Of a stretch of 64,000 nucleotides of DNA, positions 1,363-54,609 are shown one piece after another. The stretch comes from an uncultured Acidobacteriota bacterium (lineage in GTDB: Bacteria; Acidobacteriota; Vicinamibacteria; Vicinamibacterales; CAVVIG01). The stretch is from NCBI GenBank assembly GCA_963821285.1, contig CAWGDD010000010.1, positions 530,715 to 594,714 of the forward strand, written 5' to 3'. Under the pieces are notes generated by a model. It searched no databases, was not told the DNA's origin, and was given only the letters and a program-made list of their open reading frames with translations. The first letter of the stretch is position 1. Every line of letters starts with the position of its first letter. The position numbers and the translations under genes are program-made.

Positions 1363-1776
1363 CTATTCCTTGCGTTCGTCCGGCGCCCCAGTGCCCTGGG
1401 AGCCGACGAAGAGCTTCTTGCCGTCCTTGAAGGTGATATCGCGGCCGTTGGCGCGGTTGGCGCCGTCTTTCGCCTGATAGCCTTCGATGACGATCTCGGT
1501 GCCCGGCAGCAGCGAGTTCTTCGTCCAGCCGCGGCGGAGGAGTGCGTTCGGCGCGCCGGCTTCCACCATCCAGTTCGTGACGGTGCCGTCGGTGTTCTTC
1601 ACGTCGATGTAGATCCACGCGTGCGGATTGATCCACTCCATCTTCGTCACCGTTCCCGAAAGCTTGACGGGTCTCTTGGCGTCAAACTCGGCGGCGAAGG
1701 AGTGGTGGGCGAGTACCGGCACGGCCGCCAGGAGCAAACCGAGACCGGCAATCATCAAGGACAACTTCGTTCGCAT
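1363..1776 (-). CDS. small secreted protein, DUF6152-like (family name from memory), copy 1
   Basis: ORF-track ORF of 137 aa. Signal peptide ends ...VPVLA, followed by HHSFAAEFD. It shares W(I/T)NPH and a beta-rich body with 17382-17768 and 54208-54609. Confidence 0.75.
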   Translation of the reverse strand: MRTKLSLMIAGLGLLLAAVPVLAHHSFAAEFDAKRPVKLSGTVTKMEWINPHAWIYIDVKNTDGTVTNWMVEAGAPNALLRRGWTKNSLLPGTEIVIEGYQAKDGANRANGRDITFKDGKKLFVGSQGTGAPDERKE

Positions 1777-1902: not shown

Positions 1903-2915
1903 TCACCTACCCGTTTGAGCGGCGGGCGCCTGCCGCTCCTCAGCACGGGCCGCGGTGAGGATGTTGTGCAGGCCGTAATTGCCTTCATGACAGGCGTATT
2001 CGAAGGGTGCCTGCGTCGCGTCCTTCGTCAGGTTCATGGCAAACGTCCACGGCCTGGCCCACGTCGCCGCGTCGTCGAACGTGACGGACCACTCGACCCG
2101 GTTCGGTCCAACGGGCTTGAACCGTTCGACGACGCGCAGCTTCTCGCTGGCGCCGCGATTGGCCGCCTGCGGCAGGAAATTGGTCGTCTCGACGACCAGC
2201 GTGCTGCCGTCCCAATGCCCACGCGCATCGCCCATGTAGGTCTGGATCTTCGATCCGACGTGCGCGCGCTCGTCGAGCGGAATGATCCGCGTTTCGTGAA
2301 TCATCTCGTAGCGGATGGCCACGACGCCCGGGCTCTGGTGGATCTGATACGAGTTGCCGTAGATGGCCGGCATCATCGAGCCCGGAAGGCCCCGCGTGAT
2401 GCACTGGTCGTAGAGGCTCCGATCCTCGTACGAGTCCGCCGGGCCGCGGCCCGCGCGTGCCGCCGCGCGCGCGGCGGCGCGCTTCTCGGCCTCGGGCACG
2501 GTCGCCGGGATCCGGCCGTCCGCAGGATCCGTGATCAGCCACGGACGGCTGTTCTTCGCGTCGTAGTGTTCGTACCAGTGCACCGGGCCGGCGCCCGTTT
2601 CGGCTCCGCCGATGCCCGGCGCGCGCGTCACGCTCGCCTCGTTCCGCGCCTTGACGATTTCCGTGAACTCGGACTCATCGACATCTTCGAGCTTCTTGCC
2701 CGCGAACTCGCTCGGCCGCTCGACGGGAATGCCGTTCTCGTCCTTGTTGGTGTAGACGCCGGCCAGATCCGGGTCGCCCCACGCGGTCCGCGGGGGTGTG
2801 TAGGCTTTCGCCGGCGCTTTTTTCGACGCAGGCGCCTGGGTCTGGGCCGCCGTCGGGATGGACGCATAGACGAACACGAGGACGATCGCCAACCGCATCG
2901 TCACCACGGGTCGCT

Positions 2916-2919
<4 letters not shown>
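1903..2919 (-). CDS. secreted protein, uncharacterised S-family paralog 2
   Basis: ORF-track ORF of 338 aa with a signal peptide. C-terminal core GHWDGSTLVVETTNF...LRVVERF...DDAATWARPW aligns by eye with paralog 1. Confidence 0.75.
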
Positions 2920-10172: not shown

Positions 10173-11459
10173 TTACTTGGCCTTGCGTCCGGTCACGTCG
10201 CCTGCCGTCTTCGGATCGGGACGGCCGAACCTGGCGTTGTCGATCGCGACGTTCGGCTCGTAAGCCGTCAGCGTCCAGTCGTCGCGCTCGCTGACCCAGG
10301 CGTAGCCGAATTTGAACGGCATCTTGACGCCCGCGACATCGCGGTAGTCGTCGTAGTCCACCTGCGTCGGGATGCGGCCGACCATCGTGTTCGCGTAGCG
10401 GATGTAGCGCTTCAGCAGGCCCGTCTTCTTGTCGAAGTAGAGCGTGCCGATCATGCCCGTCGGCGTGCTGCCCTGGATGACGTCGACGTCGACACCGTCA
10501 ATCGTCTGGCCGTAGCTGACGCGCCAGGTCGTGAAGAACGGCCGAATCTTCCACGGGAACGCCATGATCGCGTCGAATTTCGCGCCCTCGAGCAGCGTCG
10601 CCGTCAGCGGATACTGCGGCGTGACGGTGAGCGGCAGCTGCCACCACGCGGCGGTGCCGTCGTAGGCCCGGACGACGTCGCCTTCCTGCTGGTGGACGAA
10701 CGTCGCCACGTGCCCGTCAGCTTTCGCGTAGATTTCCGCCGGGTTGCCTTCGCCGACCTCACCGAACAGCAGGCTCTTGCCTTTGGCCGTATAGCTCGTG
10801 AGGGCGTTGACGCGTGCCGCCCCGCCTGAGGCCTCGATGAACCTGGCGAAGATCTGATCGACGGTCTTCGTGGCGTTCGTGTCGCGCACCAGAATGTCCG
10901 GCGGCGTCACCACGGCCTCGCCGTAGGCGAAATCGAGCGGCGGCGTGACGGCGGGGCTCAGATTCCCGCGATGGCAGGTCCAGCACGTCACCACCTGCCG
11001 GCCTCCGAAATTCGTCTTGTTGATGTTCTGCACCATCTGGACCATCGCGCGAGCGGTCCTCTTCCGCGCCGTCTGCGGCGACCCCGTGTCGTCCTCCCAT
11101 TTCGGATCGGACGTGCCGGCGCCGGTGTGGCAGTTGCCGCAGCAGAGGCTGAGCGACGTCGTGAAGACGCCCATCGTGCCCATGAACTCGTCCACCGGGA
11201 TGCCCTTGAGCACCTGGATGTTCTTGAACACGGCTTCCGACATCTGCGGCCGCGCGGTCGCGGCAGCGGCCTGGGCCGCCTGCTTGAGGGCGGGCGCGGC
11301 GTGAAGCGGCACGGCCGTGCCAGGAGCAAACGTCTCGAACGTCGCGCCCGGCGCCGGCGACGGCGCCGGGTGGAGACTTGTTGCGAAGGCGATGCCGGTC
11401 AGCCACGCCACCGTCAGGGCGGTGGACCCGAAGACCAGTCCTTTCGACCAAGACTTCAT
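10173..11459 (-). CDS. c-type cytochrome (photosynthetic-reaction-centre cytochrome-c-like domain) with C-terminal beta-rich LolA-like domain
   Basis: ATG at 11459 is preceded by GAGAGGAGA. Signal/TM MKSWSKGLVFGSTALTVAWLTGIAFA. Heme motifs CGNCH and CWTCH. In the sequence as given it is in frame with actD with no stop between them. Confidence 0.7.
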   Translation of the reverse strand: MKSWSKGLVFGSTALTVAWLTGIAFATSLHPAPSPAPGATFETFAPGTAVPLHAAPALKQAAQAAAATARPQMSEAVFKNIQVLKGIPVDEFMGTMGVFTTSLSLCCGNCHTGAGTSDPKWEDDTGSPQTARKRTARAMVQMVQNINKTNFGGRQVVTCWTCHRGNLSPAVTPPLDFAYGEAVVTPPDILVRDTNATKTVDQIFARFIEASGGAARVNALTSYTAKGKSLLFGEVGEGNPAEIYAKADGHVATFVHQQEGDVVRAYDGTAAWWQLPLTVTPQYPLTATLLEGAKFDAIMAFPWKIRPFFTTWRVSYGQTIDGVDVDVIQGSTPTGMIGTLYFDKKTGLLKRYIRYANTMVGRIPTQVDYDDYRDVAGVKMPFKFGYAWVSERDDWTLTAYEPNVAIDNARFGRPDPKTAGDVTGRKAK

Positions 11460-11472
11460 CGGTGTTCTCCTC

Positions 11473-11999
11473 TCAATGCTCTGAAAGTCGGCGGTCTTCA
11501 CGGCGAGCGCTCCGCCCGCGTCGAGCGCGCGACGGATCGCCTCGGGCGTCCGATCGGCCGCGATCGGGACGCCGACAAGGATCTTGCCGTCCGACACTTC
11601 CGGATCGTACAGCGACTTCGCGCGGCTCGGCAGCCGCGCCGTGACGAGCAGCGACACGACGGTCGTGAGAATCGCCGACAGCATCGTCATCTCGAAGATG
11701 ATAACCAGATACGGCCACCACGCGACGATGGGCATGCCGCCGACGTTGATCGGCCAGGCGCGTGAGGTCCCGGTCACCAGCAGCACCGCGCCGATGAACC
11801 CGAAGAGGCCCCCGACAGCCGCCAGGCGGAACAGCAGGAGCGAGTGATCGCGCTGGCTGAATTCGAACGCCTCGAAGGGCTCGGCCGAGATCACGGTGAT
11901 CTCGTTTTCGGGCACACCGGCCCGCCGGAGCGCCGTGAACGCGCGCTGCGCGGCCGAAGGCTCGGCGTAGAGGCCGTAAACCGCGGTGCTCGAGGCCAT
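11473..11999 (-). CDS. actD: alternative complex III subunit ActD-like (DUF3341-type) membrane protein
   Basis: MASSTAVYGLYAEPSAAQRAFTALRRAGVPENEITVISAEPFEAFEF plus two TM helices. The start overlaps the actC stop. The 3' end is uncertain: the frame reads through into the next gene, and an alternative stop at 11473 is one frame off. Confidence 0.7.
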
Positions 12000-13378
12000 C
12001 AGGGATGCGTCCTCCAGAGCGTCGCCGCTTCGTCCGGCGTCTCGTCAGGCTGGGTCAGCTCGAGTTGCTCGCCCACCTTGAGCTCCCAGATCGAGATGAT
12101 CGGCACGAACTTCGAGAAGAGCGTGTAGAGCAGCCCCATGGCGCCGAACGTCGCGACAAACAGCAGGATTTCCGGCATCCGCGGGCGATAGGACCCCCAC
12201 GAATACGACAGGTATTTGTGGCTCAGCGTCGGCACGATGATGAGGAACCGCTCGAGCCACATGCCGACGACGACGCCGCACGACGCGATGACGCAGCCGG
12301 TCACCGTCCGGAGCTTCCTGAACGACAGGATGCAGAGCGGCGCCACGAAGTTGCACACCACCATCGTCCAGTAGAGCGGCGCGAACGCTCCGGTCTGCGT
12401 GGTCCAGAACACGGACATCTCGGCCGACTCGTTGCCGTACCACGTCGTGAGGCGCTCCGCGAACACGAAGTAGCCCCACAGCAGGCTCATCATGAGGAGG
12501 AGCTTACCGAGGTTCTCGAAGTGCACCGGGTGCAGATAGGCCTCGAGGTGCAGGAACTTCCGGAGCGCGGCCATCGCGATGATGAGCGCGGCGATGCCGC
12601 TGAAGATCGCCCCGGCCACGAAATACGGCCCGAAGATCGTCGAGTGCCACATCGGCACGATGGCCATCGAGAAATCGAACGACACGATCGTGTGCACCGA
12701 GACGGCGACCGGAATGATGGCGATCGCCATGATCTGCATGGCCGTCTCGAGCCGGTGCCATTGCTTCGTGGTGCCTCGCCAGCCGAGCGCCAGCGCGCCG
12801 TACACCTTGCTCCGGAAGCCCGTCGTCCTGTCGCGCACGAGCGCGAAGTCGGGAATCGTCGGCAGGTACAGAAACAGGAGGCTGCCGGTCAGGTACGTCG
12901 AGATGGCGAAGAAGTCCCAGACCAGCGGCGACCGGAAGTTCGGCCAGATCTGCCGCTCGCTCGGATACGGCATCAGCCAGAAGAACAGCCACGGACGGCC
13001 GAGGTGCACGATCGGGAACATCGCGCCGATCATCAGCGCGAAGGCCGTGATCACTTCCGCGCAGCGCGTGACGGGCCGCCGCCACCCGGCGTTGACGAGG
13101 CGCAGGATCGCGGAGATCAGCGTGCCGGCGTGGCTGATGCCGATCCAGAACACGAAGTTGGTGATGTCGAACGCCCAGAACACGGGCCAGTTGAGCCCCC
13201 AGACACCGATCCCGTTGTTGACCTGATAGGCGAACGATCCAACGCCCAGCAGGACGATGCCGCCGAACACGATCACCAGCGCGTAGAACCGCCAGGACGT
13301 CTCGAGGAGCGGACGGAGCAGATCCTCCGTCACGGTCGAGGGCACGCCCGTTGCCGGGCGGGAGGTCGCCCCTGTCAT
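11999..13378 (-). CDS. actC: alternative complex III subunit ActC (NrfD/PsrC-like polytopic membrane protein)
   Basis: Start at the internal Met (MTGATSRP...) overlaps the actB2 stop as ATGA. About 10 TM helices with NrfD-like motifs (WGLNWPVFWAFDITNFVFWIGISHAGT). Intact. Confidence 0.85.
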   Translation of the reverse strand: MTGATSRPATGVPSTVTEDLLRPLLETSWRFYALVIVFGGIVLLGVGSFAYQVNNGIGVWGLNWPVFWAFDITNFVFWIGISHAGTLISAILRLVNAGWRRPVTRCAEVITAFALMIGAMFPIVHLGRPWLFFWLMPYPSERQIWPNFRSPLVWDFFAISTYLTGSLLFLYLPTIPDFALVRDRTTGFRSKVYGALALGWRGTTKQWHRLETAMQIMAIAIIPVAVSVHTIVSFDFSMAIVPMWHSTIFGPYFVAGAIFSGIAALIIAMAALRKFLHLEAYLHPVHFENLGKLLLMMSLLWGYFVFAERLTTWYGNESAEMSVFWTTQTGAFAPLYWTMVVCNFVAPLCILSFRKLRTVTGCVIASCGVVVGMWLERFLIIVPTLSHKYLSYSWGSYRPRMPEILLFVATFGAMGLLYTLFSKFVPIISIWELKVGEQLELTQPDETPDEAATLWRTHP

Positions 13379-14067
13379 GCGGAGGCCTGCGACTTGAGAT
13401 ACGTGACGTTCGGCCGCGTGCCGAGGTCTTCGAGCAGTTTCTCGCCGCGCGCCGACCGCGACAGCCGCGACGCCTGGCTTTCCGGATCGTTCAGGTCGCC
13501 GAACACGATGGCGGTGGCCGGGCACGACTGCGCGCAGGCGGGCTTCAGCTCGCCGTCCTTCATCTCACGGTTTTCGGACCTGGCCAGCTGTGTCGTCGCC
13601 TTGATGCGCTGCACGCAGAACGTGCACTTCTCCATCACGCCCACTTCGCGGACCGAGACGTCCGGGTTGAGCTGGAGATGGAGCGGCTTCTCCCAGATCG
13701 GGTTGAAGAAGTTGAAGAACCGGACGTTGTACGAGCAGGCGTTGGCGCAGTAGCGGGTCCCGATGCAGCGGTTGTAGACCTGCGCGTTGAGCCCTTCTTC
13801 GGTGTGGTGGCTCGCGTAGGTCGGGCACACGGGCTCGCACGGCGCCGCGTCGCACTGCTGGCAGAGCACCGGCCGGAACTTCAGCCGGACGTCGGGGAAC
13901 TCGCCTTCCCAGTACCGTTCGACGCGCAGCCAGTGCATGGCGCGGCCGCGCGCCGCTTCGGCGGCGCCGACGGTCGGGATGTTGTTCTCGGCGTGGCACG
14001 CGACCACGCACGCCTCGCACCCCGTGCAGCGATCCAGGTCGACGACCATTCCCCAGCGGTGTGCCAT
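13375..14067 (-). CDS. actB: alternative complex III subunit ActB2 (4Fe-4S ferredoxin-type iron-sulfur protein)
   Basis: MAHRWGMVVDLDRCTGCEACVVACHAENN..., CQQCDAAPCEPVCP and CIGTRYCANAC are Cys clusters typical of the PsrB/ActB2 Fe-S subunit. Confidence 0.85.
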   Translation of the reverse strand: MAHRWGMVVDLDRCTGCEACVVACHAENNIPTVGAAEAARGRAMHWLRVERYWEGEFPDVRLKFRPVLCQQCDAAPCEPVCPTYASHHTEEGLNAQVYNRCIGTRYCANACSYNVRFFNFFNPIWEKPLHLQLNPDVSVREVGVMEKCTFCVQRIKATTQLARSENREMKDGELKPACAQSCPATAIVFGDLNDPESQASRLSRSARGEKLLEDLGTRPNVTYLKSQASA

Positions 14068-14075
14068 ATGCCTTC

Positions 14076-16317
14076 TCAGCGGTGCGTATGCTCGGCTTCG
14101 GTCAGCGAGCCGCCAAACCGGATCAGGCCGCCGTCGGCCTCGGCGACGCGCGCGATCTTCACGCGGGTCGCCGCCCACGCGAGCGCGCCGGTTTCCGGTT
14201 CGACGACCGGCGCCAGCACCTTCACCGGGTTGCTGCCGCGGCCGCTCGCGTAGCGCGTGAACGTCTCGTGCCCCTGCCCGACCGGCATCGCGAGCACATC
14301 GGGCGCGATACCGGGCGAATGCAGGGCCGGCGCGCGCACCGTGCCGTGCGCCGACGCGATCTCGACGACGTCGCCGTCGCCGATGCCGAGCCGGCCCGCG
14401 GTCTGCGGGTTGATCTCCACCCAGACGCTCCACATCGCCGTGGAGATCGGATCCGGCATCTCCTGCAGCCACGGCAGGTGCGCCAGGGATCCGTCGAGAA
14501 ACGCCTGCGACGCGTACGGCAGGAAATGAAACGGATACTGCGCCGCGTCGCCATCGAACACCGCCTCGCGCACGATCTCTCTTCCCCGTCTGCCCTCTGC
14601 CCTCAGCCTTTGCCCTCTGCCCTTCGCCCTTGCCCTCTGCCCTCTGCCCTGTGCCTTCGCACCCACCCCTGCTTCGTCGCCGTCGCCCAGGCCTCCTCGC
14701 CGATCGTGGCCTGCAGCATCTGATCGAACGACGCCCACGGCAGTTCCGGCTTGATGGGCGACGCGAGTTTCTTCGCGACGTCGAGCAGCACGTCCGGCGT
14801 GGCGCGCGTCTGGTAGAGCGGCTTCATCGCGGGCCCGGCGACCGTCGTCACCGCCACGGTCGCGCCCGACTCGGGCCGCGCGTCGGTCCACGACTCGAGG
14901 AACGCGTGGTCCGGCAGGATGAGGTCGGCGAGCACGCTCGTGTCGTCCACGAAGCTGGCGAAGCTGACGACGAACGGGACCTTGAGGATGGCGTCCTTGA
15001 CGCGCCAGCCGGGCGGCGTGGCGTAGACCGGGTTGACGCGGTCGACGAGCAGCACCTGCACGGGCGGCTTGTCGGCGGCGAGTATGTCCGCGGCGACGGC
15101 GCGCAGCGTCTTCCCGGTGCCGCGAGCCGGCGGAGTCGGCCTGCGGCGTGAACGAGAGACCGCCCGGTGCGCCCACGCTGCCGAGCAGCGCGTTCAGCGC
15201 GTTGACGGCGAGCGCCTGAAACAGACCGTTGGCCTGCGCGAGCGGCGCGCCGCCGATGATGGCCACCGATGGCCGCTGTTCGGCCAGCTCGCGCGCAAGC
15301 CGCTCGACCCGCGCGGCCTTGACGCTCGTCTTCTGCTCGACGGCCTGCGGCGTGTAGTCGGCCAGGCCTCTGGACCACCCGTCGACGAGCGCGCCCGCAC
15401 GGCCGGCCGCATCCGCGGGCCGCAGCTTGTCGCGCATGATCACGTGGGCAAGTCCGAGCGCCAGCACGGCCTCGGTGCCGGGACGAATCGCGACCCATTC
15501 ATCCGCGCTCGCGCCGGTCAGGGACATGCGGGGTTCCACCTGGACGAACGCTCCGCGAATGCCCGGCCGGCCCTGCCGCATGCGACCGTAGGCGCCGGTG
15601 TGCGCGACGGGGCTGTTCCAGGTGCCGAGGAAATCTGCGCCGAACGAGATCGCGTAACGCGAGGCCGCGAGATCGAACGTCGGCAGCTGCGCCGCGGCCG
15701 AAGCTCATCTCGTTCGCGCGCCGCAGGACGTCGTCGCTGAACAGCTCGAACGTCGTGGCCGGCGGCGCGCCGAAACGCGCGAGGAAAAGCGCCGTCAGGT
15801 CGTGGCGCGCGCTCGAACCGGGCCGCGTCCAGCACGCGAGCGCCGGCTGCGTCTTCGACGCGGCGAGCGCGTCGAGCTGGCCGACCAGTTCCGCAATGGC
15901 GGCGTCCCACGTGATCGGCTGGAAATCGTTGCTGCCTCGTGCGCCGCGGCGCTTGAGCGGCTCCTTGATCCGGTCGGGGTGATACGCGATCTGGATGGCC
16001 GCCTGGCCGCGCGGGCAGAGCGTCCCCTGGTTCACCGGGTGCGTCGGGTTGCCCTCGAGCTTCTTCGCCAGGCTCATCGTCACGACGCCGGCCTGACCGC
16101 CGCGCACCGTGTCCACGTCGCCCTGCATCACACGGATGGTCGTCCCGCATCCGGCGTTGCACTGCGGGCACACGCCGTTCTTGATCTCCGCGAGACCCGG
16201 CGTCAGATCCTCGTCGGGCACGAACCGGATGAGCTCGTGCTCCGGGTTGCCGCAGCTCGCGAGCGTGACTGCGCCGCCCGTCACCGCCGTCAGCTTGATG
16301 AAGTTTCGACGATCCAT
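14076..16317 (-). CDS. actB: alternative complex III subunit ActB1 (Tat-exported molybdopterin-oxidoreductase-like), three frame changes
   Basis: Tat signal MDRRNFIKLTAVTGGAVTLASCG. The N-terminal Cys cluster is CPQCNAGCG. Homologous sequence continues across three frames (ORFs 15499..16914, 14076..15581, 14603..15061), with shifts near 15693, 15118 and 14660. Confidence 0.8.
14589..14657. repeat. tandem heptamer repeat W9 (TCTGCCC-like, about 10 units) inside the actB1 coding region
   Basis: The run is TCTGCCC TCTGCCC TCAGCCTT TGCCCTC TGCCCTT CGCCCTT GCCCTC TGCCCTC TGCCCTG TGCC. Period 7 is not a multiple of 3. It is translated as Gly/Arg/Ala-rich filler (GAKAQGRGQRARAKGRGQRLRAEGRRG). A reading-frame change maps to its edge. 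Confidence 0.7.
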
Positions 16318-16331
16318 GGTCTGCGGACGCC

Positions 16332-16914
16332 TCAGAAGTGACACGTGAGGCAGTCGTTCGACGCCTTCCGCTCGCGGTGGCAGTCCACGCAGAACCCCAT
16401 CGAGTGGTTGACCGTCGCGCTCGGCGACCGTCATCTTGGCGACGTCACCGTGGCAGTTCGTGCACTCGACCTTCGCGCGGATGTGCGGCGCGTGGTTGAA
16501 CCGGACGTGTGCTTCGGACGTGAAACCGTAGACCCGCTGCCACGGCAGGTCGATGTTCTTCTTGTAGTAGTCGTTCGTGATCTTCATGATCAGCGGCCGA
16601 TCGGTCGCGATCGAGTCGTGGCAGATCATGCAGGTCTTCACGCTCGGGATGCCGGCGGCCGGCCCCTTCTCCACCGACTCGTGGCACGTCTCCGTGCACT
16701 TGAGCATCGCCTTCTCGACGTGCGTCTGGTGCGGAAACGGGATCGGCTGCTGCGCCGAGGCGCGCATGCCGAAGAATTCGCGCACGGCAGCCATGTTCGT
16801 GGAGTGCGCCGTCGTGAAGATGTTTGCGGCGGGAGGCGCGGGCGTACACGCGGACGCGCACGCCCCGATTCCCAGGATGACTCCCAGACTGATGATCCGG
16901 CAGCGTGCGCGCAT
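16332..16914 (-). CDS. actA: alternative complex III subunit ActA (pentaheme cytochrome c), one frameshift near 16417
   Basis: Heme motifs CTETCH, CMICH and CTNCH lie in the ORF 15499..16914 frame. After a 1-nt shift the true C-terminus appears (TVNHSMGFCVDCHRERKASNDCLTCHF, stop 16332-16334), adding CVDCH and CLTCH. Confidence 0.8.
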
Positions 16915-16923: not shown

Positions 16924-17352
16924 CTACTTCTTCGCGATGCTGTGCAGGTAGTTCACGACATTCCAGATGTCGGTGTCCATCATCTTGGCCTTCATCGGCT
17001 TCATGTCGAACTTCGGGCCGACGCCTTCCTTGATGCTCGTGAAGATCTCGCCGTCGGTCGAACCGTGATCCCAGGTGGCGTCCACCAGGTTGGGCGGATG
17101 CGTGTCTTTCGGCGCGAGCGCGCCGTTCCCCGTCGCGTCTTCGGCGTGGCAGAACTTGCAGTACTTGCCGTACGCCGTTTTCCCGGCAGCAATCGATTCG
17201 GGCGACGACTTCACCGGGTTCTTGATCTTGGCCGCCTCGGCGTTCTTGACACCCTGCGCGCTGGCGGACACGGCGAGTGAGACGACAAAAGCGGCGGTCG
17301 CCGCAACGATGATCGGTCGCGAAACGCGGATCCTGTGGGCGAAACTAGACAC
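16924..17352 (-). CDS. monoheme c-type cytochrome
   Basis: GTG start at 17350-17352 is preceded by AGGAGGAG. Signal peptide present, heme motif CKFCH. Confidence 0.75.
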   Translation of the reverse strand: MSSFAHRIRVSRPIIVAATAAFVVSLAVSASAQGVKNAEAAKIKNPVKSSPESIAAGKTAYGKYCKFCHAEDATGNGALAPKDTHPPNLVDATWDHGSTDGEIFTSIKEGVGPKFDMKPMKAKMMDTDIWNVVNYLHSIAKK

Positions 17353-17381: not shown

Positions 17382-17768
17382 CTACTCCACTGTCCCCGAT
17401 GAACGCCACGGCGCGCCGTTCAGGGTGACCGCACAGCGCCGGCACAATCCGCTCGCTGTACCGGCGCGCGACGGACGCACCGTCATCACCACGTGGTCGC
17501 CGGGCCGCAGCGACGTTTTCGTCCAGCCGTCGGCGGAGAGCGCGCTCGGACTGCCCAGTTCGACCGTGTACGTCCGGCCGGCGAACGCGCCGCTGGCGAC
17601 GTCGATGTATACGTGGCAGTGCGGGTTCGTCCATGCGAAGCCGGCCACCCGGCCTTTGACAGCGACGGTTTCGTCGGCCGCGTACGTCGCGGCCGCGCTG
17701 TGATGCGCCGAAGCGGTCGACGCAGCGGCGAGTGACATCACGACCGCCCACGCCGGCAGCTGGCTCAC
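17382..17768 (-). CDS. small secreted protein, DUF6152-like, copy 2
   Basis: Signal peptide ends ...ASTASA, followed by HHSAAATYA. WTNPH motif. It sits between two cytochrome c genes directly upstream of actA. Confidence 0.7.
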   Translation of the reverse strand: MSQLPAWAVVMSLAAASTASAHHSAAATYAADETVAVKGRVAGFAWTNPHCHVYIDVASGAFAGRTYTVELGSPSALSADGWTKTSLRPGDHVVMTVRPSRAGTASGLCRRCAVTLNGAPWRSSGTVE

Positions 17769-17778: not shown

Positions 17779-18213
17779 TTACTTCGGCTCCGACATCTTC
17801 ACGGTCTTCAGCGTCGCGGCGGTCGTCGGCAGCGGCGCCTTGCCCGCGGGGTACTTGTTGACGCTCAGTACGTATGCCATCACGTCCGCATACTGATCGG
17901 CCTTGAGCGTGCCCGGCGCGTTGGACGGCATGTCCATCGAGATCTTGTCGAAGAGCTCGGCGGCGGTCATGCCCTTCCAGCCGTTGATGAAATCCTTACC
18001 CGAAATCGCCGGGCCTCCCGTGCTGGAGCCTTCCAGCTTATCGCCGTGGCAGATGGCGCAGGAGTCGGCGTAGACCTTCTCCCCGCGTTTCGCCTGCTCG
18101 TCGGCGTAGATGCCGTCGGCGGCGGTCGCCGGCGCCTGCGCGCGGGCGGTCGAAAACCCGACCGTAAACGTCGTAATTGCAAGGACTAGGAGGCCGGACG
18201 GTATGCGCTTCAT
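17779..18213 (-). CDS. monoheme c-type cytochrome
   Basis: 144 aa with a signal peptide and heme motif CAICH. Confidence 0.8.
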   Translation of the reverse strand: MKRIPSGLLVLAITTFTVGFSTARAQAPATAADGIYADEQAKRGEKVYADSCAICHGDKLEGSSTGGPAISGKDFINGWKGMTAAELFDKISMDMPSNAPGTLKADQYADVMAYVLSVNKYPAGKAPLPTTAATLKTVKMSEPK

Positions 18214-22730: not shown

Positions 22731-23762
22731 CTACTTCTTCGCCTTGCTCAGATCCTTGTAGACCGCTTCGATGAACTGATCCGTCGTCCAGAAGCCGCTC
22801 GTCGCACCCCATCGCGCGTCGTAGTCGAGCGTCGGCTTCCCGGCCTTCACCTGGTCGAGCGTCTGCCCGCGCTTGACACCATCCTGAATGCGGTCGCGGA
22901 TGATCGTGATCATGTCCCGATACTCGAGCAGATCGGCTTCGTCGGTCAGGCGGCCGTGGCCCGGGATGATATAGGTGCCGCCTTCCTGCATCGCCTTCGG
23001 GATCGCGATGTCGAGCATGTTGTTCAGCGCCGCGATGATCCCGGTGATGTTCCCGCCGCGCGCCGAGTCGATGAACGGGTACGTCGTCGTGACGAAGAGA
23101 TCCCCGGCGACGATGACGTCCGACTTGCGGAAGTACACGATGCTGTCGCCGTCGGTGTGGGCCGCGGGCTGGTGGATGACCTGCAGCGACTCCCCGTTGA
23201 AGAAGAGCTCCTTCTGCTTCGAAATGTAGGTGTCGGTCGGCCACGCGGTCGTCGGGAACGGCGCCTGCTGGCCGGTCGGCGCGCTCATGCGGTTCAGGAC
23301 GTTTTCGTGCGCGATGATACCGGCACCCACGCCCGCCCCGGCGCCCACGTTGCCGCCTGCGATCGTGCTGCCCAGCTTCCCGATGTAGTCGTTGCCGCCA
23401 ACATGATCCGGGTGCACGTGGGTGTTCACGATGTAGCGAATCGGCTTGTTGCTCAGCGTGCGGATGGCGGCCACGACCTTCTCCGCGTTCGCCGCGAGCC
23501 CGGTGTCCACCAGCAGCACGCCGTCGTCGCCAATCTGCAGCGCGATGTTGCCGCCGGCGCCGACCAGCATGTGCACGTTGCCCTGCACGTGCAGGATGTG
23601 GAGCTCGGCGTCCGCAGCCGCGGGCGCGGCGCCTCGCCCGCCGCGGCCTCCGCCGGCGCCCGGCTGCGGAGCCTGCCGGGCCTCGCCCTGTACACCCGAA
23701 TACACGAGCGAGGCGATCGCGACAGCGGCCAGCGCGGCCAGCTTCGAGGTATTGCTCTGCAT
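22731..23762 (-). CDS. periplasmic MBL-fold metallo-hydrolase (triad A)
   Basis: 343 aa with a signal peptide. HxHxDH motif VNTHVHPDHVGGN, a later H (AAHTDGDS) and PGHG. Gly/Arg-rich insert GAGGGRGGRGAAP after the signal peptide. Confidence 0.8.
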   Translation of the reverse strand: MQSNTSKLAALAAVAIASLVYSGVQGEARQAPQPGAGGGRGGRGAAPAAADAELHILHVQGNVHMLVGAGGNIALQIGDDGVLLVDTGLAANAEKVVAAIRTLSNKPIRYIVNTHVHPDHVGGNDYIGKLGSTIAGGNVGAGAGVGAGIIAHENVLNRMSAPTGQQAPFPTTAWPTDTYISKQKELFFNGESLQVIHQPAAHTDGDSIVYFRKSDVIVAGDLFVTTTYPFIDSARGGNITGIIAALNNMLDIAIPKAMQEGGTYIIPGHGRLTDEADLLEYRDMITIIRDRIQDGVKRGQTLDQVKAGKPTLDYDARWGATSGFWTTDQFIEAVYKDLSKAKK

Positions 23763-23772
23763 GCGCGGACTC

Positions 23773-24672: not shown

Positions 24673-24789
24673 GTCAGTTCAGAATCCGGCGCGACGTGCG
24701 CCCGGTGGGCGTGCATTTTACGATTAGTGCCCCCCGAACACCAGAAACCCCTTTGACATAGGTCCTTGCGCAATCGGTATCGCCCGATT

Positions 24790-25239: not shown

Positions 25240-25253
25240 GTCAGAAGTCGGCC

Positions 25254-25831: not shown

Positions 25832-25833
25832 TG

Positions 25834-29232: not shown

Positions 29233-29235
29233 GAA

Positions 29236-32001: not shown

Positions 32002-32319
32002 ATGAAACACCTCATTCGCGCAGCCGCCGCACTGGTTCTGACCCTGGCCCTGGGCGTCCCTGCGTTCGCGCACGGAACCAACGCCCACGTCCGTGGCGTC
32101 GTGACGCAGGTGACGGCGAAGTCCGTCACCGTGCAACTGGCCGACAACACCACCAAGACGCTGACCCTCAGCGCCAAGACCACCTTCGAACGCGCGGGCA
32201 AGCCCGCCGCGATGACCGACCTGAAGGTGGGCGACCGCGTTGTCATCGACGTGCCGAAGAATTCCAGCGAGGCGCTCGAAGTGCAGATCGGCACGGCGCC
32301 CAAGGCCGCGACAAAGTAG
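32002..32319 (+). CDS. small secreted beta-rich protein (DUF5666-like, tentative)
   Basis: 105 aa. Signal peptide ends ...GVPAFA, followed by HGTNAHVRG. VTQVTAKSVTVQLADNTTKTLTL...VGDRVVIDV. Confidence 0.5.
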   Translation: MKHLIRAAAALVLTLALGVPAFAHGTNAHVRGVVTQVTAKSVTVQLADNTTKTLTLSAKTTFERAGKPAAMTDLKVGDRVVIDVPKNSSEALEVQIGTAPKAATK

Positions 32320-33224: not shown

Positions 33225-34040
33225 CTAGCGTGCGGTGTGGAACGCGAGGGTGACCCAGAAGCTCTCCCACTCCGGGCCCGGGGGGAATGCCTTGGGCAAC
33301 CGCTCCATGTGAACGGTCTTCACGAGCCACGCGCCGGCGCGATCGATGGGGAACGTCGCCCTGCCCTGAGCGTCGGTCTGACGCGGGATCTCGCCGCCGT
33401 CGACCGCCGCGCTGACGGCAGCGTTCGGTGCGGGCCGTCCGTTGACCAGCAGTTGAACCGTCAGGGTCTCTCCAGCGCGGACTGACGTCGGGTCGGTGGC
33501 CGGCACCAGCTCCGCCCTGACGCCGACCGGTCTCGTCAGGTGCGCCGCGCTTCCCTCTCCGTTGCGGATCGCCAGCTTGGCGTACCGGGAATATCGTTCC
33601 TTGGCCGGCCGGTCGAGCTCACCGGCAGCTTTCCGCTCGGCGAGCGCATCGGTCAGCCCTTCTTCTTTCAGGTAGTCGTTGAACTCGTCCGCCTTCATCT
33701 CGATCGTGCGTGGCGTCACCCGCATGACGGCGAGGAACGCGCCTGTCGCCGGTAGGTTGACATCGGCCACCATCGCCAGCTCGCGCCGCTCGAACATCTT
33801 GGACACGGGAATCGCGGCGGACGGCCCGATGATCCGCCAGTCGTCGAACCAGTTCGCCGGCGTCTTGAAATCGAGACGGGTTGGGAAGTGTTCGCCGACG
33901 CCCGCGCTGATGCCGAACGGCGTCCCCGCATCCGGGGTCCAGTTCGATGCGGCAAGCCAGAAATCGTGTGCCGAGAGGTGCGCGGTCGCCAGCGCAAGGG
34001 CGACCGCCGTGGCCACGCCGAAAGGAATTCTGATGCGCAT
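33225..34040 (-). CDS. DUF4198-domain periplasmic protein (Ni/Co-uptake-associated family)
   Basis: 271 aa. Signal peptide ends ...AHLSA, followed by HDFWLAASNW, the typical DUF4198 N-terminus. Confidence 0.75.
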   Translation of the reverse strand: MRIRIPFGVATAVALALATAHLSAHDFWLAASNWTPDAGTPFGISAGVGEHFPTRLDFKTPANWFDDWRIIGPSAAIPVSKMFERRELAMVADVNLPATGAFLAVMRVTPRTIEMKADEFNDYLKEEGLTDALAERKAAGELDRPAKERYSRYAKLAIRNGEGSAAHLTRPVGVRAELVPATDPTSVRAGETLTVQLLVNGRPAPNAAVSAAVDGGEIPRQTDAQGRATFPIDRAGAWLVKTVHMERLPKAFPPGPEWESFWVTLAFHTAR

Positions 34041-34054: not shown

Positions 34055-34708
34055 CTACTTCTTCTTCGACCTGATCTCGCTCTTCTCGATCCTGGCGCGC
34101 TGCCGCTCGTCCTCTTCGACCGCTTTTCGATCGCCCGGATACCAGTACTCGAGGTGACAGGCTTCGCAGGCCTTGTCGAGGTCTTCGCCGGCCTCGAACA
34201 GCGCCTTGGTGTCTTTCTTGTTCGCGATCTCGAGCACTTCCAGCGCCACGTTACGCAGCGCCTGGATCTTGGCGTCCCAGAGCACCGGATCCGCGTCGAG
34301 CTTGGCTTGGATCTGAGTGGGCGACAGCTCAGGCGGATTGGGGCCGGTGCTGTTGTTGACGTCGCCGGCTGGCGCGAACGGCCGCGGGAGCTTGAGCAGG
34401 TAGATCGCTTCAGCCAGCGTAACGGCGCCGATCTTCACCTTCTCCCAATCCTCGTCGGTCTTCGGAAAAGTTTCGACGATGCCCTTCTTGGTAGCCTCGT
34501 AGGTGACCGCATCGAAGATGTTGTCGGAGATGGGGTCGATGGTGAACCGCATCAGCTCCTTGACCGAGACGACGGCTTTCATCTCGGTCCGCCCGACCGG
34601 GTTCGCCGCCGGCGGGGCCGCGGGCCTGGGCGACGAGCAATTCGCCGTCAACGCCGCAACATACAAGATGCCGGCCACCACGATGAGACGTTTACCACCG
34701 CTCAACAT
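34055..34708 (-). CDS. lipoprotein, class-II (cytochrome c-prime-like) c-type cytochrome
   Basis: Lipobox LTANC. A single C-terminal heme motif (ACEACHLEYWYPGD) in a helical protein. Paralog of 53420-54016. Confidence 0.6.
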   Translation of the reverse strand: MLSGGKRLIVVAGILYVAALTANCSSPRPAAPPAANPVGRTEMKAVVSVKELMRFTIDPISDNIFDAVTYEATKKGIVETFPKTDEDWEKVKIGAVTLAEAIYLLKLPRPFAPAGDVNNSTGPNPPELSPTQIQAKLDADPVLWDAKIQALRNVALEVLEIANKKDTKALFEAGEDLDKACEACHLEYWYPGDRKAVEEDERQRARIEKSEIRSKKK

Positions 34709-52688: not shown

Positions 52689-53423
52689 TCAGGACTTGGG
52701 CACAGCGGGATACGCGAAGTCCAGCGCCGTTGCCACGCCCGGCTTGACGTCCACCGTCTTCGTGAGCGTCCCGAACTTCTCGTGCCACACGCTGATCGTG
52801 CGCTTGCCGGCAGGCACGTTGCCGATCGTGAACGAGCCGTCGGCGCCGGTGACCGCGAAGTACGGATGATCGACGATGCCGACCCACGCCGTCATCCAGC
52901 GGTGGACGTCGCAGCCGATCTTGAGCATCTCTTCATCCACGAGCTTGAAGTCGTGCGTGATACCGGCGATCGGCTGCCCCACGTTGAAGCTGTTGCGATG
53001 GCTGGAGCTGCTATGGACGTTGTGCAGCAGGTTGTCGCTGTTCTTGACGCGCAGCATCTGGCCCACGCGCGCGCCGATGACTCGAGGCAGGTAGAAGCAG
53101 GCCTTCTGATCGATGACGACCGGCTGCGCCGGCACGGGTGTCCCGGGGAAGGCGCCTTCCAGCTTCACGAACACGTTCATCAACCCGCCATCGTCGCTCG
53201 TGGCGACGACTTCGTCCACGGGCCCGGGTTTCTTGCCGGCCCACATCTTCGCGCACATCGGGTCCATGCCCATCCGGATGACCCGGTTGCCGGGGGCCTC
53301 TCCGCTCAGCTTGACGCGGCCTTTGAGCGTGCCCGTCGCATCGGGCGCGGCAGAGGCCAAGACCGCCGCCGCCGAAACCGCCAGCGCGCTGGCAGCGAAT
53401 ACGCCCCGGACGCGATGCGTCAT
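52689..53423 (-). CDS. secreted cupredoxin-like (type-1 copper site) protein with C-terminal carboxypeptidase-regulatory-like domain
   Basis: Start at the internal Met (MTHRVRGVFAASALAVSAAAVLASA). Candidate ligands are NLLHNVH and GCDVHRWM (His, Cys-x2-His-x2-Met). The C-terminal part is GADGSFTIGNVPAGKRTISVWHEKFG. Confidence 0.6.
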   Translation of the reverse strand: MTHRVRGVFAASALAVSAAAVLASAAPDATGTLKGRVKLSGEAPGNRVIRMGMDPMCAKMWAGKKPGPVDEVVATSDDGGLMNVFVKLEGAFPGTPVPAQPVVIDQKACFYLPRVIGARVGQMLRVKNSDNLLHNVHSSSSHRNSFNVGQPIAGITHDFKLVDEEMLKIGCDVHRWMTAWVGIVDHPYFAVTGADGSFTIGNVPAGKRTISVWHEKFGTLTKTVDVKPGVATALDFAYPAVPKS

Positions 53424-54016
53424 TTCTTTCTCACGCTGGCCGCGCGCTCGACCTTCTCGGCATCCGCCGGATACCAGTACTTCAGGTGGCAGTTTTCGCA
53501 CGCGTTGTCGATGACTTCGCCGGCGTCCGACAGCGCCTCGGCGTTCTTGGCGTCGATGGCCGCCAGGGCCTTGAGCCCGGCATCGTGCAGGGCGTCCGCC
53601 AGCTTGACGAGCGTGTCCGGGTCGTTGTCCATGACCATCCGGATCGCCTCGGGGCTCAGCTCGATGCCGGGGTTTTCGGATTTCTCGCCCGGCTTGGCGA
53701 CGGCGCGCCCCTCCATGATCAGCAGATTGTTCGCTTCCACGAGCGTGATCGCGGCGCGACGGACTTTCTTCCAGTCGTCGTCAGTCCGCGGCCGGCGCTC
53801 CTCAGTGCCTGCCTTCGTGACGATCGTCGCCACCGACTCCCAGAGGTAGTCGGCGGCCGGGTCGACCATCGAGTCCATGATGTCCTTGATGGTCGCCGTC
53901 TTGCGGAACGGCGGCTCCTTCTTGGCGGGCGGGGCGGGAGCGGGTGCCGAACACGCGGCGGCGATCAGCAGCGATACGCCAGCCAGCACGAGCCAATGGA
54001 ACGTTCTCAGTCTCAT
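53420..54016 (-). CDS. lipoprotein, class-II (cytochrome c-prime-like) c-type cytochrome
   Basis: Start at the internal Met (MRLRTFHWLVLAGVSLLIAAAC). C-terminal heme motif NACENCHLKYWYPAD. Paralog of 34055-34708. The stop overlaps the cupredoxin start (ATGA). Confidence 0.6.
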   Translation of the reverse strand: MRLRTFHWLVLAGVSLLIAAACSAPAPAPPAKKEPPFRKTATIKDIMDSMVDPAADYLWESVATIVTKAGTEERRPRTDDDWKKVRRAAITLVEANNLLIMEGRAVAKPGEKSENPGIELSPEAIRMVMDNDPDTLVKLADALHDAGLKALAAIDAKNAEALSDAGEVIDNACENCHLKYWYPADAEKVERAASVRKK

Positions 54017-54057
54017 TCGACACCCTTCTTCAACATGGAGCCGCCCGAAAAAGCGAA

Positions 54058-54095
54058 GGGCAGGCAGGCAGGAATCCAACCTGCCCAACCTGCCC
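54058..54095. repeat. small word-hairpin W4b (GGCAGG x3 / CCTGCC x2)
   Basis: The sequence is GGGCAGGCAGGCAGG-AATCCAA-CCTGCCCAACCTGCCC. It lies 40-80 nt upstream of the cytochrome start at 54016. Confidence 0.55.
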
Positions 54096-54115
54096 CCACA
54101 ACGACCGTCGAATTT

Positions 54116-54199
54116 GGTCATCTGGTCATCTAGTCATCTGGTCATCAATTGGATCATTTCGAAGAAATGACCAGATGACCAAATGACCAGATGACCAGA
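54116..54199. repeat. word-hairpin W4 (GGTCATCT x4-5 / AGATGACC x4)
   Basis: GGTCATCTGGTCATCTAGTCATCTGGTCATCAATTGGATCATTTC-GAA-GAAATGACCAGATGACCAAATGACCAGATGACCAGA. AT-rich relative to the window. It starts about 9 nt after the stop of the DUF6152 gene (54208). Confidence 0.8.
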
Positions 54200-54207: not shown

Positions 54208-54609
54208 TTAGTCGAAGGTGCCGCCCCACTTCCAGCCGTCGGACGGCCGGGTGATCGTGCGCATCCGCAGGCGGTGATCCTCGGGATTGCGGCCCGGGTT
54301 GCCCGTGATGATGACGTGGTCGCCGGGTTTCAGCGTCTCACGCGTCACGCCCTGGCGGTTCAGCTGCAGACCAGCGCCCCACTCCACCGCGTACCGCACC
54401 ACCTGCCCCTGCGCGTCCTTGCCTTCGACGTGCACGAACGAGTGCGGGTTGCGGAAGAGGAACTGCACCAGCTCGCCTTCGACCGACTCGGTCTTGTCTT
54501 CGAAATACGTCGCCGCGAACGAGTGGTGCGCGGAGACCGGCTTCATCGTATAGATGAAGGCCCCCACGAACGCCACAGCTGTCAGTCCCAGAAGCAACTT
54601 GTGTTTCAT
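54208..54609 (-). CDS. small secreted protein, DUF6152-like, copy 3
   Basis: Start at the internal Met (MKHKLLLGLTAVAFVGAFIYTMKPVSA), followed by HHSFAATYF. Contains an FRNPH motif. Confidence 0.75.
   Translation of the reverse strand: MKHKLLLGLTAVAFVGAFIYTMKPVSAHHSFAATYFEDKTESVEGELVQFLFRNPHSFVHVEGKDAQGQVVRYAVEWGAGLQLNRQGVTRETLKPGDHVIITGNPGRNPEDHRLRMRTITRPSDGWKWGGTFD

Follow-up and report, generated by a model that had tools for sequence, protein, structure and literature searches.

Judged from its sequences, there is an even chance that DUF6152 is a new family of OB-fold proteins whose metal site is built around an N-terminal histidine. A large family, with 13,188 matching clusters (50% identity; E ≤ 1e-3), it abounds in soil Acidobacteriota and is wholly uncharacterised; in the literature, we found no paper on DUF6152 or PF19649, nor on a periplasmic OB-fold copper protein with an N-terminal histidine. 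If the His-His start of these proteins binds a metal, an N-terminal-histidine site would be seen on an OB fold for the first time, and DUF6152 would join the class of the LPMOs, CopC and the 'signal-strapping' proteins of 2025. What the analysis establishes for the family is the export signal, the pattern at the cleavage site, residue conservation, the class of fold and synteny.

Three DUF6152 precursors in the window

The first-pass annotation had placed three DUF6152 genes in the window (the whole stretch of DNA analysed, 64 kb). All three were present, on the minus strand, and all scored above the Pfam PF19649 gathering score (27 bits) used as the membership cut-off. Paralog 1 (par1, 1363..1776) encodes 137 aa (E 2e-36, 124.4 bits), with the signal peptide in codons 1708-1776, the mature His-His at 1702-1707, an NPH motif at 1621-1629 and the conserved Glu72 at 1561-1563. 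Paralog 2 (par2, 17382..17768) encodes 128 aa (85.6 bits, His-His codons 17700-17705), and paralog 3 (par3, 54208..54609) encodes 133 aa from the ATG at 54609 (68.2 bits, His-His codons 54523-54528). An alternative, longer par3 starting with the GTG at 54660 is possible.

Read from the sequence, the precursor N-termini are MRTKLSLMIAGLGLLLAAVPVLA followed by HHSFAAEF in par1, MSQLPAWAVVMSLAAASTASA followed by HHSAAATY in par2 and MKHKLLLGLTAVAFVGAFIYTMKPVSA followed by HHSFAATY in par3. The signal peptides do end in VLA, ASA and VSA, directly before HHS(F/A)AA, as initially described. They are of the Sec type, with hydrophobic cores whose best 9-residue windows average 2.3-2.8 on the Kyte-Doolittle scale, and satisfy the -3/-1 rule by which the cleavage sites of the DUF6152 precursors were assigned (V, A and V at -3, A at -1). 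The n-region of par2 has no Lys or Arg, which makes its signal peptide the weakest of the three. Cleaved at the predicted sites, mature par1, par2 and par3 would each begin with His-His. Par1 and par3 are identical in 29% of alignment columns, and H24, H25, N50, P51, H52 and E72 are invariant across the three paralogs.

Conservation begins at the predicted cleavage site

To count conservation, the three window paralogs were aligned by MAFFT with 150 representatives of 50% identity clusters. The suspected conservation of the dipeptide at the cleavage site held across the homologs, with His at +1 in 136/143 sequences, His at +2 in 136/143 and Ala at -1 in 130/143. Residues upstream of the site vary freely, so conservation begins exactly at the predicted cleavage site. 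In 128 representatives His-His is preceded by 12 or more residues; of these, 120 have Ala and 5 have Gly at -1, and Met lies a median of 24 residues from His-His. The background frequency of His at +1 in secreted proteins is 2.6% (PMC12537917), and the frequency of the motif in the aligned DUF6152 sequences is far beyond chance. The genome scan for DUF6152 loci was seeded with an AHH pattern, which biased the primary matches toward His-His. In the cases unbiased by this seed, namely the secondary paralogs in loci L006, L052, L061, L064 and L080 and the metagenome relatives of par2 (L095-L099), His-His after the signal peptide was kept in all, at 31-41% identity.

The further conserved potential ligands of the mature chain are His2, the NPH His (148/151), Glu72 (146/152), Glu30 (129/142) and Asp32 (131/142), the last two conserved in the main DUF6152 clade. 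Among the conserved potential ligands, only H24, H25, H52 and E72 are invariant in all three window paralogs; E30 and D32 were lost in par2 and par3. Conservation extends beyond the histidines to the whole HHSFAAEFD segment (F27 in 133/140). Two tandem-domain homologs depart from the general pattern. The second domain of P0188 keeps an internal WHHSYxDxYD and has lost NPH, while the second OB domain of P0135 keeps DPH and Glu without the His-His segment. Consequently, the putative ligands are not found together in every domain, and a free amine is sometimes missing.

The mature domain is modelled as an OB barrel

The AF2 model of mature par1 (pLDDT 87.3) is a five-stranded OB-type barrel. Foldseek searches of the PDB with this model returned OB folds only (SSB, PriB and the LysRS anticodon domain; E ~1e-3, TM 0.4-0.54), generic matches with no metalloprotein homolog among them, and PDB sequence searches with the single sequence and with a profile found no related solved structure. 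DUF6152 was the sole match in a Pfam scan at E up to 10, with none to CopC, LPMO or CusF, and NCBIfam gave no match for DUF6152, its operon partner described below, DUF6644 or the cytochrome c'-like proteins. On the model, we confidently assign the mature body to the OB-fold barrels, and not to the beta-sandwich of LPMO, CopC or YcnI.

By our own reading of the model summary, the first residues of par1 are among the few low-confidence positions; in the published apo model of DUF6702 the His1 side chain is likewise placed with low confidence (PMC12537917). Covariation recovered the hairpin of strands 2 and 3 (pairs 37-43, 35-45 and 33-47), and if this register is extended, Glu49 comes to pair with Trp31, two positions away from His29 (mature numbering). 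A weaker ladder (12-43, 10-45 and 8-47; rank 13 of 4753) gives a weak hint that the N-terminal segment may run back toward the His29/Glu49 end. Strand 1 of a canonical OB fold is long, with its start at one end and the strand 1-2 loop at the other, a geometry that counts against a composite site of His-His and His29.

Operon partner and gene neighbourhoods

Directly upstream of par1, after a 126-bp gap, lies the gene for a secreted 338-aa protein of an unannotated family (g2-like; 1903..2919, minus strand). This protein is a conserved operon partner of DUF6152: it was present in 79/80 DUF6152 genome loci (99%) and was the same-strand upstream neighbour in 35/46 loci, with a median gap of 53 bp. 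It has no Pfam or NCBIfam match, and PDB sequence searches found no related solved structure for the family. About 8000 homologs were scored, and among the matches listed (120) all were unnamed or 'hypothetical protein'. The sole PDB fold matches of its AF2 model (pLDDT 78) were the calycin barrels of FABP, CRABP and SAHS, and they were weak (E 1.5e-4, TM ~0.5 on the target). Through its link to g2, a family equally large and unannotated, DUF6152 offers experimenters a handle on two groups of hypothetical proteins together. Apparent g2-DUF6152 fusions (P0143 and P0180) look like gene-calling or assembly artefacts and were excluded from the evidence.

We clustered 734 ORFs from the 80 loci and scanned the 148 nearest non-partner neighbours against Pfam. 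Besides g2, the recurrent neighbours were DUF6644 membrane proteins, PQQ dehydrogenases and cytochromes. DUF6644 was found at 23/80 loci (31/148 nearest non-partner neighbours), where it occurs as tandem pairs. The name 'DUF6644' appears in no paper in the literature, and DUF2214 and DUF2231, to which DUF6644 has weak Pfam matches, appear only in surveys of DUF families. A cytochrome c'-like family was near DUF6152 in 5-6/80 loci.

In the window, par2 lies between two class I cytochrome c genes on its own strand (17779..18213, directly upstream; 16924..17340, directly downstream, start codon approximate; both PF13442/PF00034, minus strand), and both are conserved beside par2 orthologs. Alternative complex III-like genes, assigned by Pfam matches, follow downstream (10173..16914, minus strand). 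They encode multihaem and molybdopterin-type ActA/B, NrfD-type ActC and an ActD fused to a multihaem domain, and their order is repeated in metagenome locus L090. The par2 subfamily carries NPHC(H) and a C-terminal GLCRxC motif. Its orthologs on metagenome contigs (62-82% identity) retain HH, NPHC and CRxC, together with the order cytochrome c, DUF6152, cytochrome c, ActA/B. Par2 is a fixed part of a cytochrome c-DUF6152-cytochrome c-alternative complex III operon, a link that gives a handle on this subfamily like that given by g2.

Directly downstream of par3 is a gene for a cytochrome c'-like protein with a C-terminal CENCH (53420..54121, minus strand). Its paralog (34055..34708, minus strand; weak Cytochrom_C_2 match; 38% identical, E 8e-33) lies between a TonB-dependent receptor (34803-37289) and a DUF4198 gene (33225..34040, minus strand; PF10670, E 1.2e-31, 110.9 bits; partial match to PDB 9GCB). 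Each of the two cytochrome c'-like genes thus adjoins a gene for an N-terminal-histidine protein, DUF4198 in one case and par3 in the other. Par3 is upstream of the cytochrome c'-like gene, a CarboxypepD_reg protein and a TonB-dependent receptor, an arrangement that parallels the TonB-dependent receptor-cytochrome c'-like-DUF4198 operon of the same window. The earlier statement that all of these genes lie among copper or cytochrome genes is only partly true. Among the DUF6152 genes it is right for par2 and par3 as regards cytochromes. It fails for par1, whose neighbours are the g2-like protein and an acetyl-CoA synthetase, and for all three it fails as regards copper, the copper-type genes of the window being at least 11.8 kb from every DUF6152 gene.

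A candidate metal site at the N-terminus

From these features we infer metal binding, a ligand set and a role. The ~110-residue DUF6152 protein would be Sec-exported and cut by signal peptidase I after the conserved Ala, leaving a mature chain that starts His-His. The N-terminal His (alpha-amine and imidazole) and/or His2 may form a mononuclear transition-metal site, with two further probable ligands: the invariant His in the NPH turn joining strands 1 and 2, and a Glu, likewise invariant, where strand 3 ends. The protein would work in the periplasm with the co-transcribed, calycin-like g2 protein, and the pair would act from clusters that often hold PQQ dehydrogenases, c-type or c'-like cytochromes, alternative complex III and DUF6644. 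This redox and DUF6644 setting suggests that DUF6152 is either the metal-bearing partner of the module or a metal catcher handing the metal on. The density of paralogs, three in 64 kb here and up to two per 10-kb locus, would be less usual for metallochaperones than for enzymes or binding proteins and counts against this explanation.

A conserved His at +1 after the signal peptide has marked four new metal-binding families on unrelated folds, as shown experimentally, with sites such as His1/His18 and His1/His28/His32 (PMC12537917). By its sequences, DUF6152 is a family of the same description, with a predicted signal peptide and a conserved His at +1, and the precedent makes an N-terminal-His-anchored metal site in DUF6152 reasonable; the text and supplements of PMC12537917 do not mention it. 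DUF6702, Ang-1 and Ang-2 ('signal-strapped' proteins found by the same logic) have His1 conserved at 65-100% and a further His ~28-32 residues on (His1/His28/His32 in DUF6702, compared with the candidate His1/His2/His29 in DUF6152). They are proposed to sequester metal or hand it off, some are fused to membrane permeases, and their affinities have been measured (PMC12537917). They differ from DUF6152 in fold (an Ig-like beta-sandwich in the DUF6702 model) and share no sequence relation with it. Thus, of the histidine-brace copper site suggested by the first-pass annotation, the histidine metal site as such draws support from the near-invariant His-His, the co-conserved NPH His and Glu, and this precedent. 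Copper fared worse. If any metal is bound, it is doubtful that it is Cu(II), with Ni, Zn and Fe comparably likely.

Copper, other metals and non-metal readings

In a canonical Cu(II) histidine brace, His1 would bind through its NH2 and N-delta and a second His through N-epsilon in a T-shape, for CopC-like trafficking or for LPMO-like oxidation with cytochromes or PQQ dehydrogenases donating electrons. The N-terminal His is ~95% conserved, a second invariant His follows 28 residues on, and an N-terminal X-His dipeptide by itself chelates Cu(II) strongly, all of which would suit such a centre. Periplasmic redox proteins neighbour DUF6152 in many loci, and par2 sits in an alternative complex III operon, at the place where one would look for a small periplasmic redox carrier. 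CusF-like (32002-32709), YtkA (37311-37724) and RND pump (39314-42407) genes also lie in the same 64-kb window. Against this, the RND gene is frameshifted and none of these copper-type genes is adjacent to a paralog. For the 148 nearest non-partner neighbours at the 80 loci, the 25 families listed include no copper family (CopA/multicopper oxidase, CopC, CopD, SCO1, PCuAC, HMA or cupredoxin). The recurring gene clusters of these loci contained no copper-handling family, and the 22 metagenome loci had no match to the copper-type genes of the window. A copper genomic context for DUF6152 was rejected after this ORF clustering and Pfam scan.

The likeness to LPMO and CopC, from which copper had been argued, does not extend to the scaffold. 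CopC, YcnI, PmoB-type proteins and LPMOs are, like DUF6152, secreted or periplasmic, with a chelating His as first mature residue and further conserved His. They are beta-sandwiches (Ig or cupredoxin-like), however, and DUF6152 is an OB barrel without a Pfam match to them. There is no PF04234 (CopC) match and no adjacent CopD, the membrane neighbours being DUF6644. In both scaffold and copper context, DUF6152 departs from the copper-brace class (LPMO, CopC, PmoB CuB, YcnI and X325). Nor did the DUF6152 alignment contain a conserved Met-rich Cu(I) motif. The internal His-His of P0188 cannot bear a free amine, which is a mild argument against a strict brace. Moreover, the characterised new N-terminal-His families prefer Ni2+ or Zn2+, and DUF4198, the other parallel drawn for copper, is not stabilised by Cu2+ at 1:1 (delta-Tm -0.2 °C) (PMC12537917). 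Taken with the points in its favour, a Cu(II) brace in DUF6152 is unlikely.

DUF6152 might instead be a periplasmic catcher of Ni, Zn, Co or Fe for import, which passes metal to DUF6644 or takes it from TonB-dependent receptors, as in DUF4198/Zcp, Ang on HupE/UreJ and CopC/CopD. DUF4198 (IsDUF4198/'NikK', PDB 9GCB; Zcp in Neisseria gonorrhoeae) is periplasmic like DUF6152, and cleavage exposes a conserved His. In 79% of its members this His is N-terminal; the site is completed by another conserved His, and the genes lie near TonB-dependent receptors (PMC12537917, PMC12663993). DUF4198 binds Ni2+ (Kd 18 nM), or Zn2+ in Zcp, and not Cu (PMC12537917, PMC12663993). It differs in being a 13-strand beta-sandwich of ~210-270 aa with a single N-terminal His and no sequence similarity to DUF6152. 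The candidate ligands, three His and one Glu, would suit Ni, Zn or Fe. The gene arrangement of par3 resembles the DUF4198 operon, and DUF6644 tandem pairs stand beside DUF6152 in 23/80 loci. DUF6644 beside DUF6152 recalls CopC/CopD and Ang/HupE, where a periplasmic N-His domain is paired with a membrane permease; CopC and YcnI likewise pair with a membrane partner (CopD and YcnJ). However, DUF6644 is missing at ~70% of loci, compared with the 99% presence of g2, and its only other matches, to DUF2214 and DUF2231, are weak. TonB-dependent receptor-type sequences are rare beside DUF6152 (4/80 loci). The neighbours listed show no recurrent family of metal-responsive regulators (Zur, Fur or NikR-type), and a test for enriched 8-mers in the upstream regions of 46 operons gave GC-rich words only, with no conserved regulatory motif. 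An import role of this kind is quite unlikely.

Quite unlikely too is a reading without metal, in which HHS-F-xx-E-F-D caps the OB barrel structurally or serves as a docking or ligand element for g2, haem or an organic cofactor, its N-terminal position being incidental. It would account for the conservation of the entire segment, E30 and D32 included, and for the internal copy kept in P0188. The obligate synteny with g2 suggests a protein-protein complex, and the strand 2/3 face is the usual ligand or partner surface of OB folds. Yet two adjacent invariant histidines exactly at the cleavage site, with a distal invariant His and Glu, are hard to explain structurally, and the loss of E30 and D32 in par2 and par3, which kept HH, NPH and Glu72, suggests that selection is strongest on the candidate ligands of the metal site. 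Very improbable is the proposal that DUF6152 and its obligate g2 make up a periplasmic redox system, so far unrecognised, in Acidobacteriota and some Proteobacteria, with a brace-type copper (or other redox metal) centre at His-His on the OB fold, electrons from PQQ dehydrogenases or cytochromes, and the Cys-bearing par2 as a dedicated carrier or maturation factor of alternative complex III.

Other small OB-fold and N-terminal-histidine proteins of the window

CusF (PF11604) is a small periplasmic OB-fold protein like DUF6152 and binds metal, and the window has two CusF-like genes. In CusF, Cu(I)/Ag(I) is held away from the N-terminus, on the inside of the barrel face, by Met/Met/His and a Trp. 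DUF6152 differs in lacking those Met residues, its alignment showing no conserved Met, and has no CusF_Ec match; homology to the CusF of the window (32347-32709) was rejected (hhalign probability 3.5%). The other gene (32002..32319, plus strand) encodes a secreted DUF5666/CusF-like OB protein of 105 aa, with weak DUF5666/CusF_Ec Pfam matches just below the cut-off. Aligned with the DUF6152 profile it gave an hhalign probability of 80.7% over a region that includes the signal peptide, and we regard the apparent similarity as weak.

This protein and DUF4198 had also been expected to mature to an N-terminal His, and the sequence carries the predicted sites as described, AFA followed by HGTNAH in the former and LSA followed by HDFWL in the latter. 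An alternative site in DUF4198, ATA followed by HLSAH, would expose a His too.

His-His after the predicted cleavage site across DUF6152

The window has a G+C content of 66.7%, and the database sequences closest to its proteins carry the label Vicinamibacterales (Acidobacteriota). The three DUF6152 paralogs reported in the first-pass annotation were present, each on the minus strand (par1, 1363-1776; par2, 17382-17768; par3, 54208-54609), and are genuine members of PF19649 (E-values 2e-36, 2.6e-24 and 6.9e-19 respectively). In all three, the export signal has a core of hydrophobic residues, and positions -3 and -1 are occupied by small ones. Cleavage, placed by the von Heijne rule and by the point where family conservation starts, would leave two histidines at the N-terminus (...AAVPVLA/HHSFAAEF, ...ASTASA/HHSAAATY and ...MKPVSA/HHSFAATY respectively). 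Only 29-33% of alignment columns are common to the paralogs, and A23, H24, H25, S26, N50, P51, H52 and E72 (par1 numbering; H24, H25, H52 and E72 are mature His1, His2, His29 and Glu49) are invariant.

An exhaustive HMMER search over 1.84 billion cluster representatives (E <= 1e-3) retrieved 13,188 DUF6152 relatives. Among the best 150 of these, essentially every full-length sequence has a signal peptide followed by A/HH[SA]F..E[FY]D. In the MAFFT alignment columns (par1 numbering), Ala was found at -1 in 130/143 sequences and His at +1 and at +2 in 136/143 each, followed by F27 (133/140), E30 (129/142), D32 (131/142), N50 (148/152), P51 (152/152), H52 (148/151), W69 (148/152) and E72 (146/152). 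Positions before Ala(-1) vary freely, so that the start of conservation coincides exactly with the predicted cleavage point. The background frequency of His at +1 in secreted proteins is 2.6% (PMC12537917). The genome scan pattern contained AHH and its primary hits are consequently biased toward HH; in the cases chosen without this pattern (second paralogs in the same loci and distant par2 relatives), HH was kept after the signal peptide at 31-41% identity. Judged from these alignments, His-His after predicted cleavage is a hallmark of the family; the earlier observation of this N-terminus was correct, and stronger than its author could know. Two tandem-domain homologs make the picture less simple: P0135 has a second domain without the HH segment that retains DPH and Glu, while the second domain of P0188 retains an internal WHHSYxDxYD and has lost NPH.

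Predicted fold and candidate metal site

AlphaFold2, run on the mature par1 sequence with 111 homologs, gave a confident model (pLDDT 87.3, pTM 0.79) of five main strands, with a helix inserted between the third and the fourth. Foldseek against the PDB returned OB folds only (E about 1e-3, TM 0.4-0.54), namely bacterial and mitochondrial SSB, PriB and the LysRS anticodon-binding domain; the modelled scaffold therefore differs from the beta-sandwich found in LPMOs, CopC, YcnI and DUF4198. No solved structure related by sequence to DUF6152 was found, profile search included, and the literature search found no paper naming DUF6152 or PF19649. The broad OB class would be common to CusF and DUF6152, but DUF6152 has no CusF profile match and no conserved Met, and hhalign against the window's CusF gave a probability of 3.5%.

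Covariation (MI-APC, 181 sequences, Neff about 152) placed its top ladder in the strand 2/strand 3 hairpin (37-43, 35-45 and 33-47, mature numbering). When this register is extended, Glu49 comes to lie opposite Trp31, which is two positions away from His29. A weaker ladder (12-43, 10-45 and 8-47; rank 13 of 4753) hints, suggestively only, that the N-terminal segment runs back toward the His29/Glu49 end. Conservation, fold class, operon structure, the export signal and the pattern around the cleavage site are established, whereas metal binding, its ligands and the role of the protein are inferred. In the reading with the best support, DUF6152 would be an OB-fold protein of the periplasm whose His-His N-terminus anchors a mononuclear metal site, with the NPH histidine and the glutamate of strand 3 as probable further ligands, and it would act with a co-transcribed calycin-like partner in modules for redox chemistry or metal handling in the periplasm. 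In our estimate, the chances that the N-terminal His binds a metal are roughly even; if real, it would add a new scaffold and a new family to the N-terminal-histidine metalloproteins.

A near-obligate operon partner

The 338-aa secreted protein encoded just upstream of par1 (1903-2919, minus strand) belongs to a family that is a near-obligate operon partner of DUF6152. A homolog was present in 79 of 80 DUF6152 loci, all drawn from representative genomes of GTDB species; most of these loci come from Vicinamibacterales, Bryobacterales or other Acidobacteriota, and a few from Pseudomonadota. In 46 cases the central gene could be resolved by crude gene calling, and in 35 of them the upstream neighbour of DUF6152 was a same-strand partner copy (median gap 53 bp). 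Two to five copies per locus are common, among them a short form with the C-terminal domain alone. About 8000 homologs were scored, none of those listed having a name other than 'hypothetical', and the family matched no model in Pfam or NCBIfam. The AlphaFold model (pLDDT 78) is helical in its N-terminal half and strand-rich in its C-terminal half, and its only PDB fold matches, all weak (E 1.5e-4), were FABP/CRABP/SAHS calycin barrels. The conserved motifs are RC, EMIHD.RIIPLDGRPH, GDSRGHWEG.TLVV.TTNF, ERFTR and EYACHEGNY, with conserved cysteines in RC...EYACHEGNY. This obligate unannotated family, together with a subfamily linked to alternative complex III (ACIII), extends the value of the original finding.

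A related cassette is present twice in the window (22731-26789 and 28249-31210, minus strand): a protein with the metallo-beta-lactamase fold (22731-23762 and 28249-29232) is preceded directly by a distant partner relative (23773-24672 and 29236-30081) that shares 21-24% of columns, and nearby are DUF6644 membrane proteins (24790-25302 and 30656-31210) and, in the first copy, a DUF2231/DUF6644 fusion (25254-26789). Various small or metal-dependent proteins thus seem to serve as partners of the calycin-like family.

Among the 80 loci, PQQ dehydrogenases were found near DUF6152 at 10, cytochrome c'-like proteins at 5-6 and reaction-centre-type multihaem cytochromes at 4-5; sulfite-oxidase-type molybdoenzymes also recur. 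Neither the recurring gene clusters nor the 25 families that the neighbour scan listed include one that handles copper.

Which metal, if any

The His-His N-terminus had been read as a possible LPMO/CopC-like copper brace. An N-terminal-His metal site stands as a sound, testable hypothesis, but fold and context speak against that type of copper site. The general principle behind this reading is established in a 2025 paper: irrespective of fold, a His at +1 following signal-peptide removal is the mark of a metal chelator, with DUF6702, Ang-1 and Ang-2 as further examples (PMC12537917); DUF6152 is absent from its text and supplements. The DUF4198 protein (33225-34040, minus strand) is indeed predicted to mature to an N-terminal His, and its family is already characterised, with Ni2+ (IsDUF4198) and zinc (Zcp). 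IsDUF4198 (PDB 9GCB) binds Ni2+ with a Kd of 18 nM by a facial, non-canonical brace made up of His1 and His18, and Cu2+ gave no stabilisation (delta-Tm -0.2 °C at 1:1) (PMC12537917). In Neisseria gonorrhoeae, Zcp captures zinc in the periplasm (PMC12663993). By analogy, precedent would favour Ni or Zn at least as much as copper, and copper is a rather doubtful candidate if any metal is bound at all.

All these proteins had been placed among copper or cytochrome genes; cytochrome genes do neighbour par2 and par3, but none of the window's copper-type genes (two CusF-like, YtkA and that of an RND pump, which is broken into at least four ORFs) adjoins DUF6152. A canonical Cu brace in DUF6152 is improbable: the genomic context gives copper no support, the predicted fold is OB and not a beta-sandwich, and P0188 counts slightly against a strict brace, since its internal HH copy has no free amine to offer.

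Tandem DUF6644 membrane proteins occur at 23 of the 80 loci; of the 148 ORFs nearest to DUF6152 (partner excluded), 31 encode them. That DUF6152 catches metal for import linked to DUF6644 or to a TonB-dependent receptor is slightly less probable than the brace, and the HH segment as a non-metal structural or docking motif is as improbable as this metal catcher. DUF6644 genes nearly always form tandem pairs (L017, L021, L025, L035, L058, L062, L073 and other loci), often with a cytochrome c'-like gene next. Their conserved motifs (P..E..H, DLRLLG and GR) suggest a small membrane module; the only other Pfam similarity, weak, is to DUF2214 and DUF2231.

In the DUF4198 protein, the alternative AxA-type sites ATA/HLSAH and LSA/HDFWL lie four residues apart, and either would expose a histidine. 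A DUF5666/CusF-like small OB protein (32002-32319, plus strand) also has a predicted N-terminal His (AFA/HGTNAH). Immediately upstream of both CusF-like genes is a class I cytochrome c (31368-31988, plus strand) with a His-rich tail (...SPEAHHHD). The RND (AcrB/CusA-type) pump gene (39314-42407, minus strand) has its profile pieces in separate ORFs (positions 20-284 in 39459-42407, 426-502 in 40892-41599, 536-674 in 40421-40858 and 866-989 in 39314-39868) and is either a pseudogene or affected by assembly frameshifts; TonB-dependent receptor pieces at 44409-49067 look fragmented too.

The par2 subfamily and the par3 neighbourhood

par2 is a distinct DUF6152 subfamily. Its metagenomic orthologs (62-82% identity) adjoin the same cytochrome c genes wherever contigs reach far enough, and the longest contigs (L089, L090 and L096) run on into ActA/B of ACIII. 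Besides HH and Glu, the orthologs have NPHC(H) and a C-terminal GLCRxC. The three extra conserved cysteines (NPHC and GLCRxC; 17382-17768 and loci L081-L092), absent from par1 and par3, could form a redox centre, a metal centre or a disulfide.

Downstream of par3 lies a cytochrome c'-like gene (53420-54121, minus strand) whose product is 38% identical (E 8e-33) to that of 34055-34708 (minus strand), located between a TonB-dependent receptor and DUF4198. Both proteins have a C-terminal CxxCH followed by YWYP, and each gene adjoins one for a predicted N-terminal-His periplasmic protein (par3 and DUF4198 respectively).
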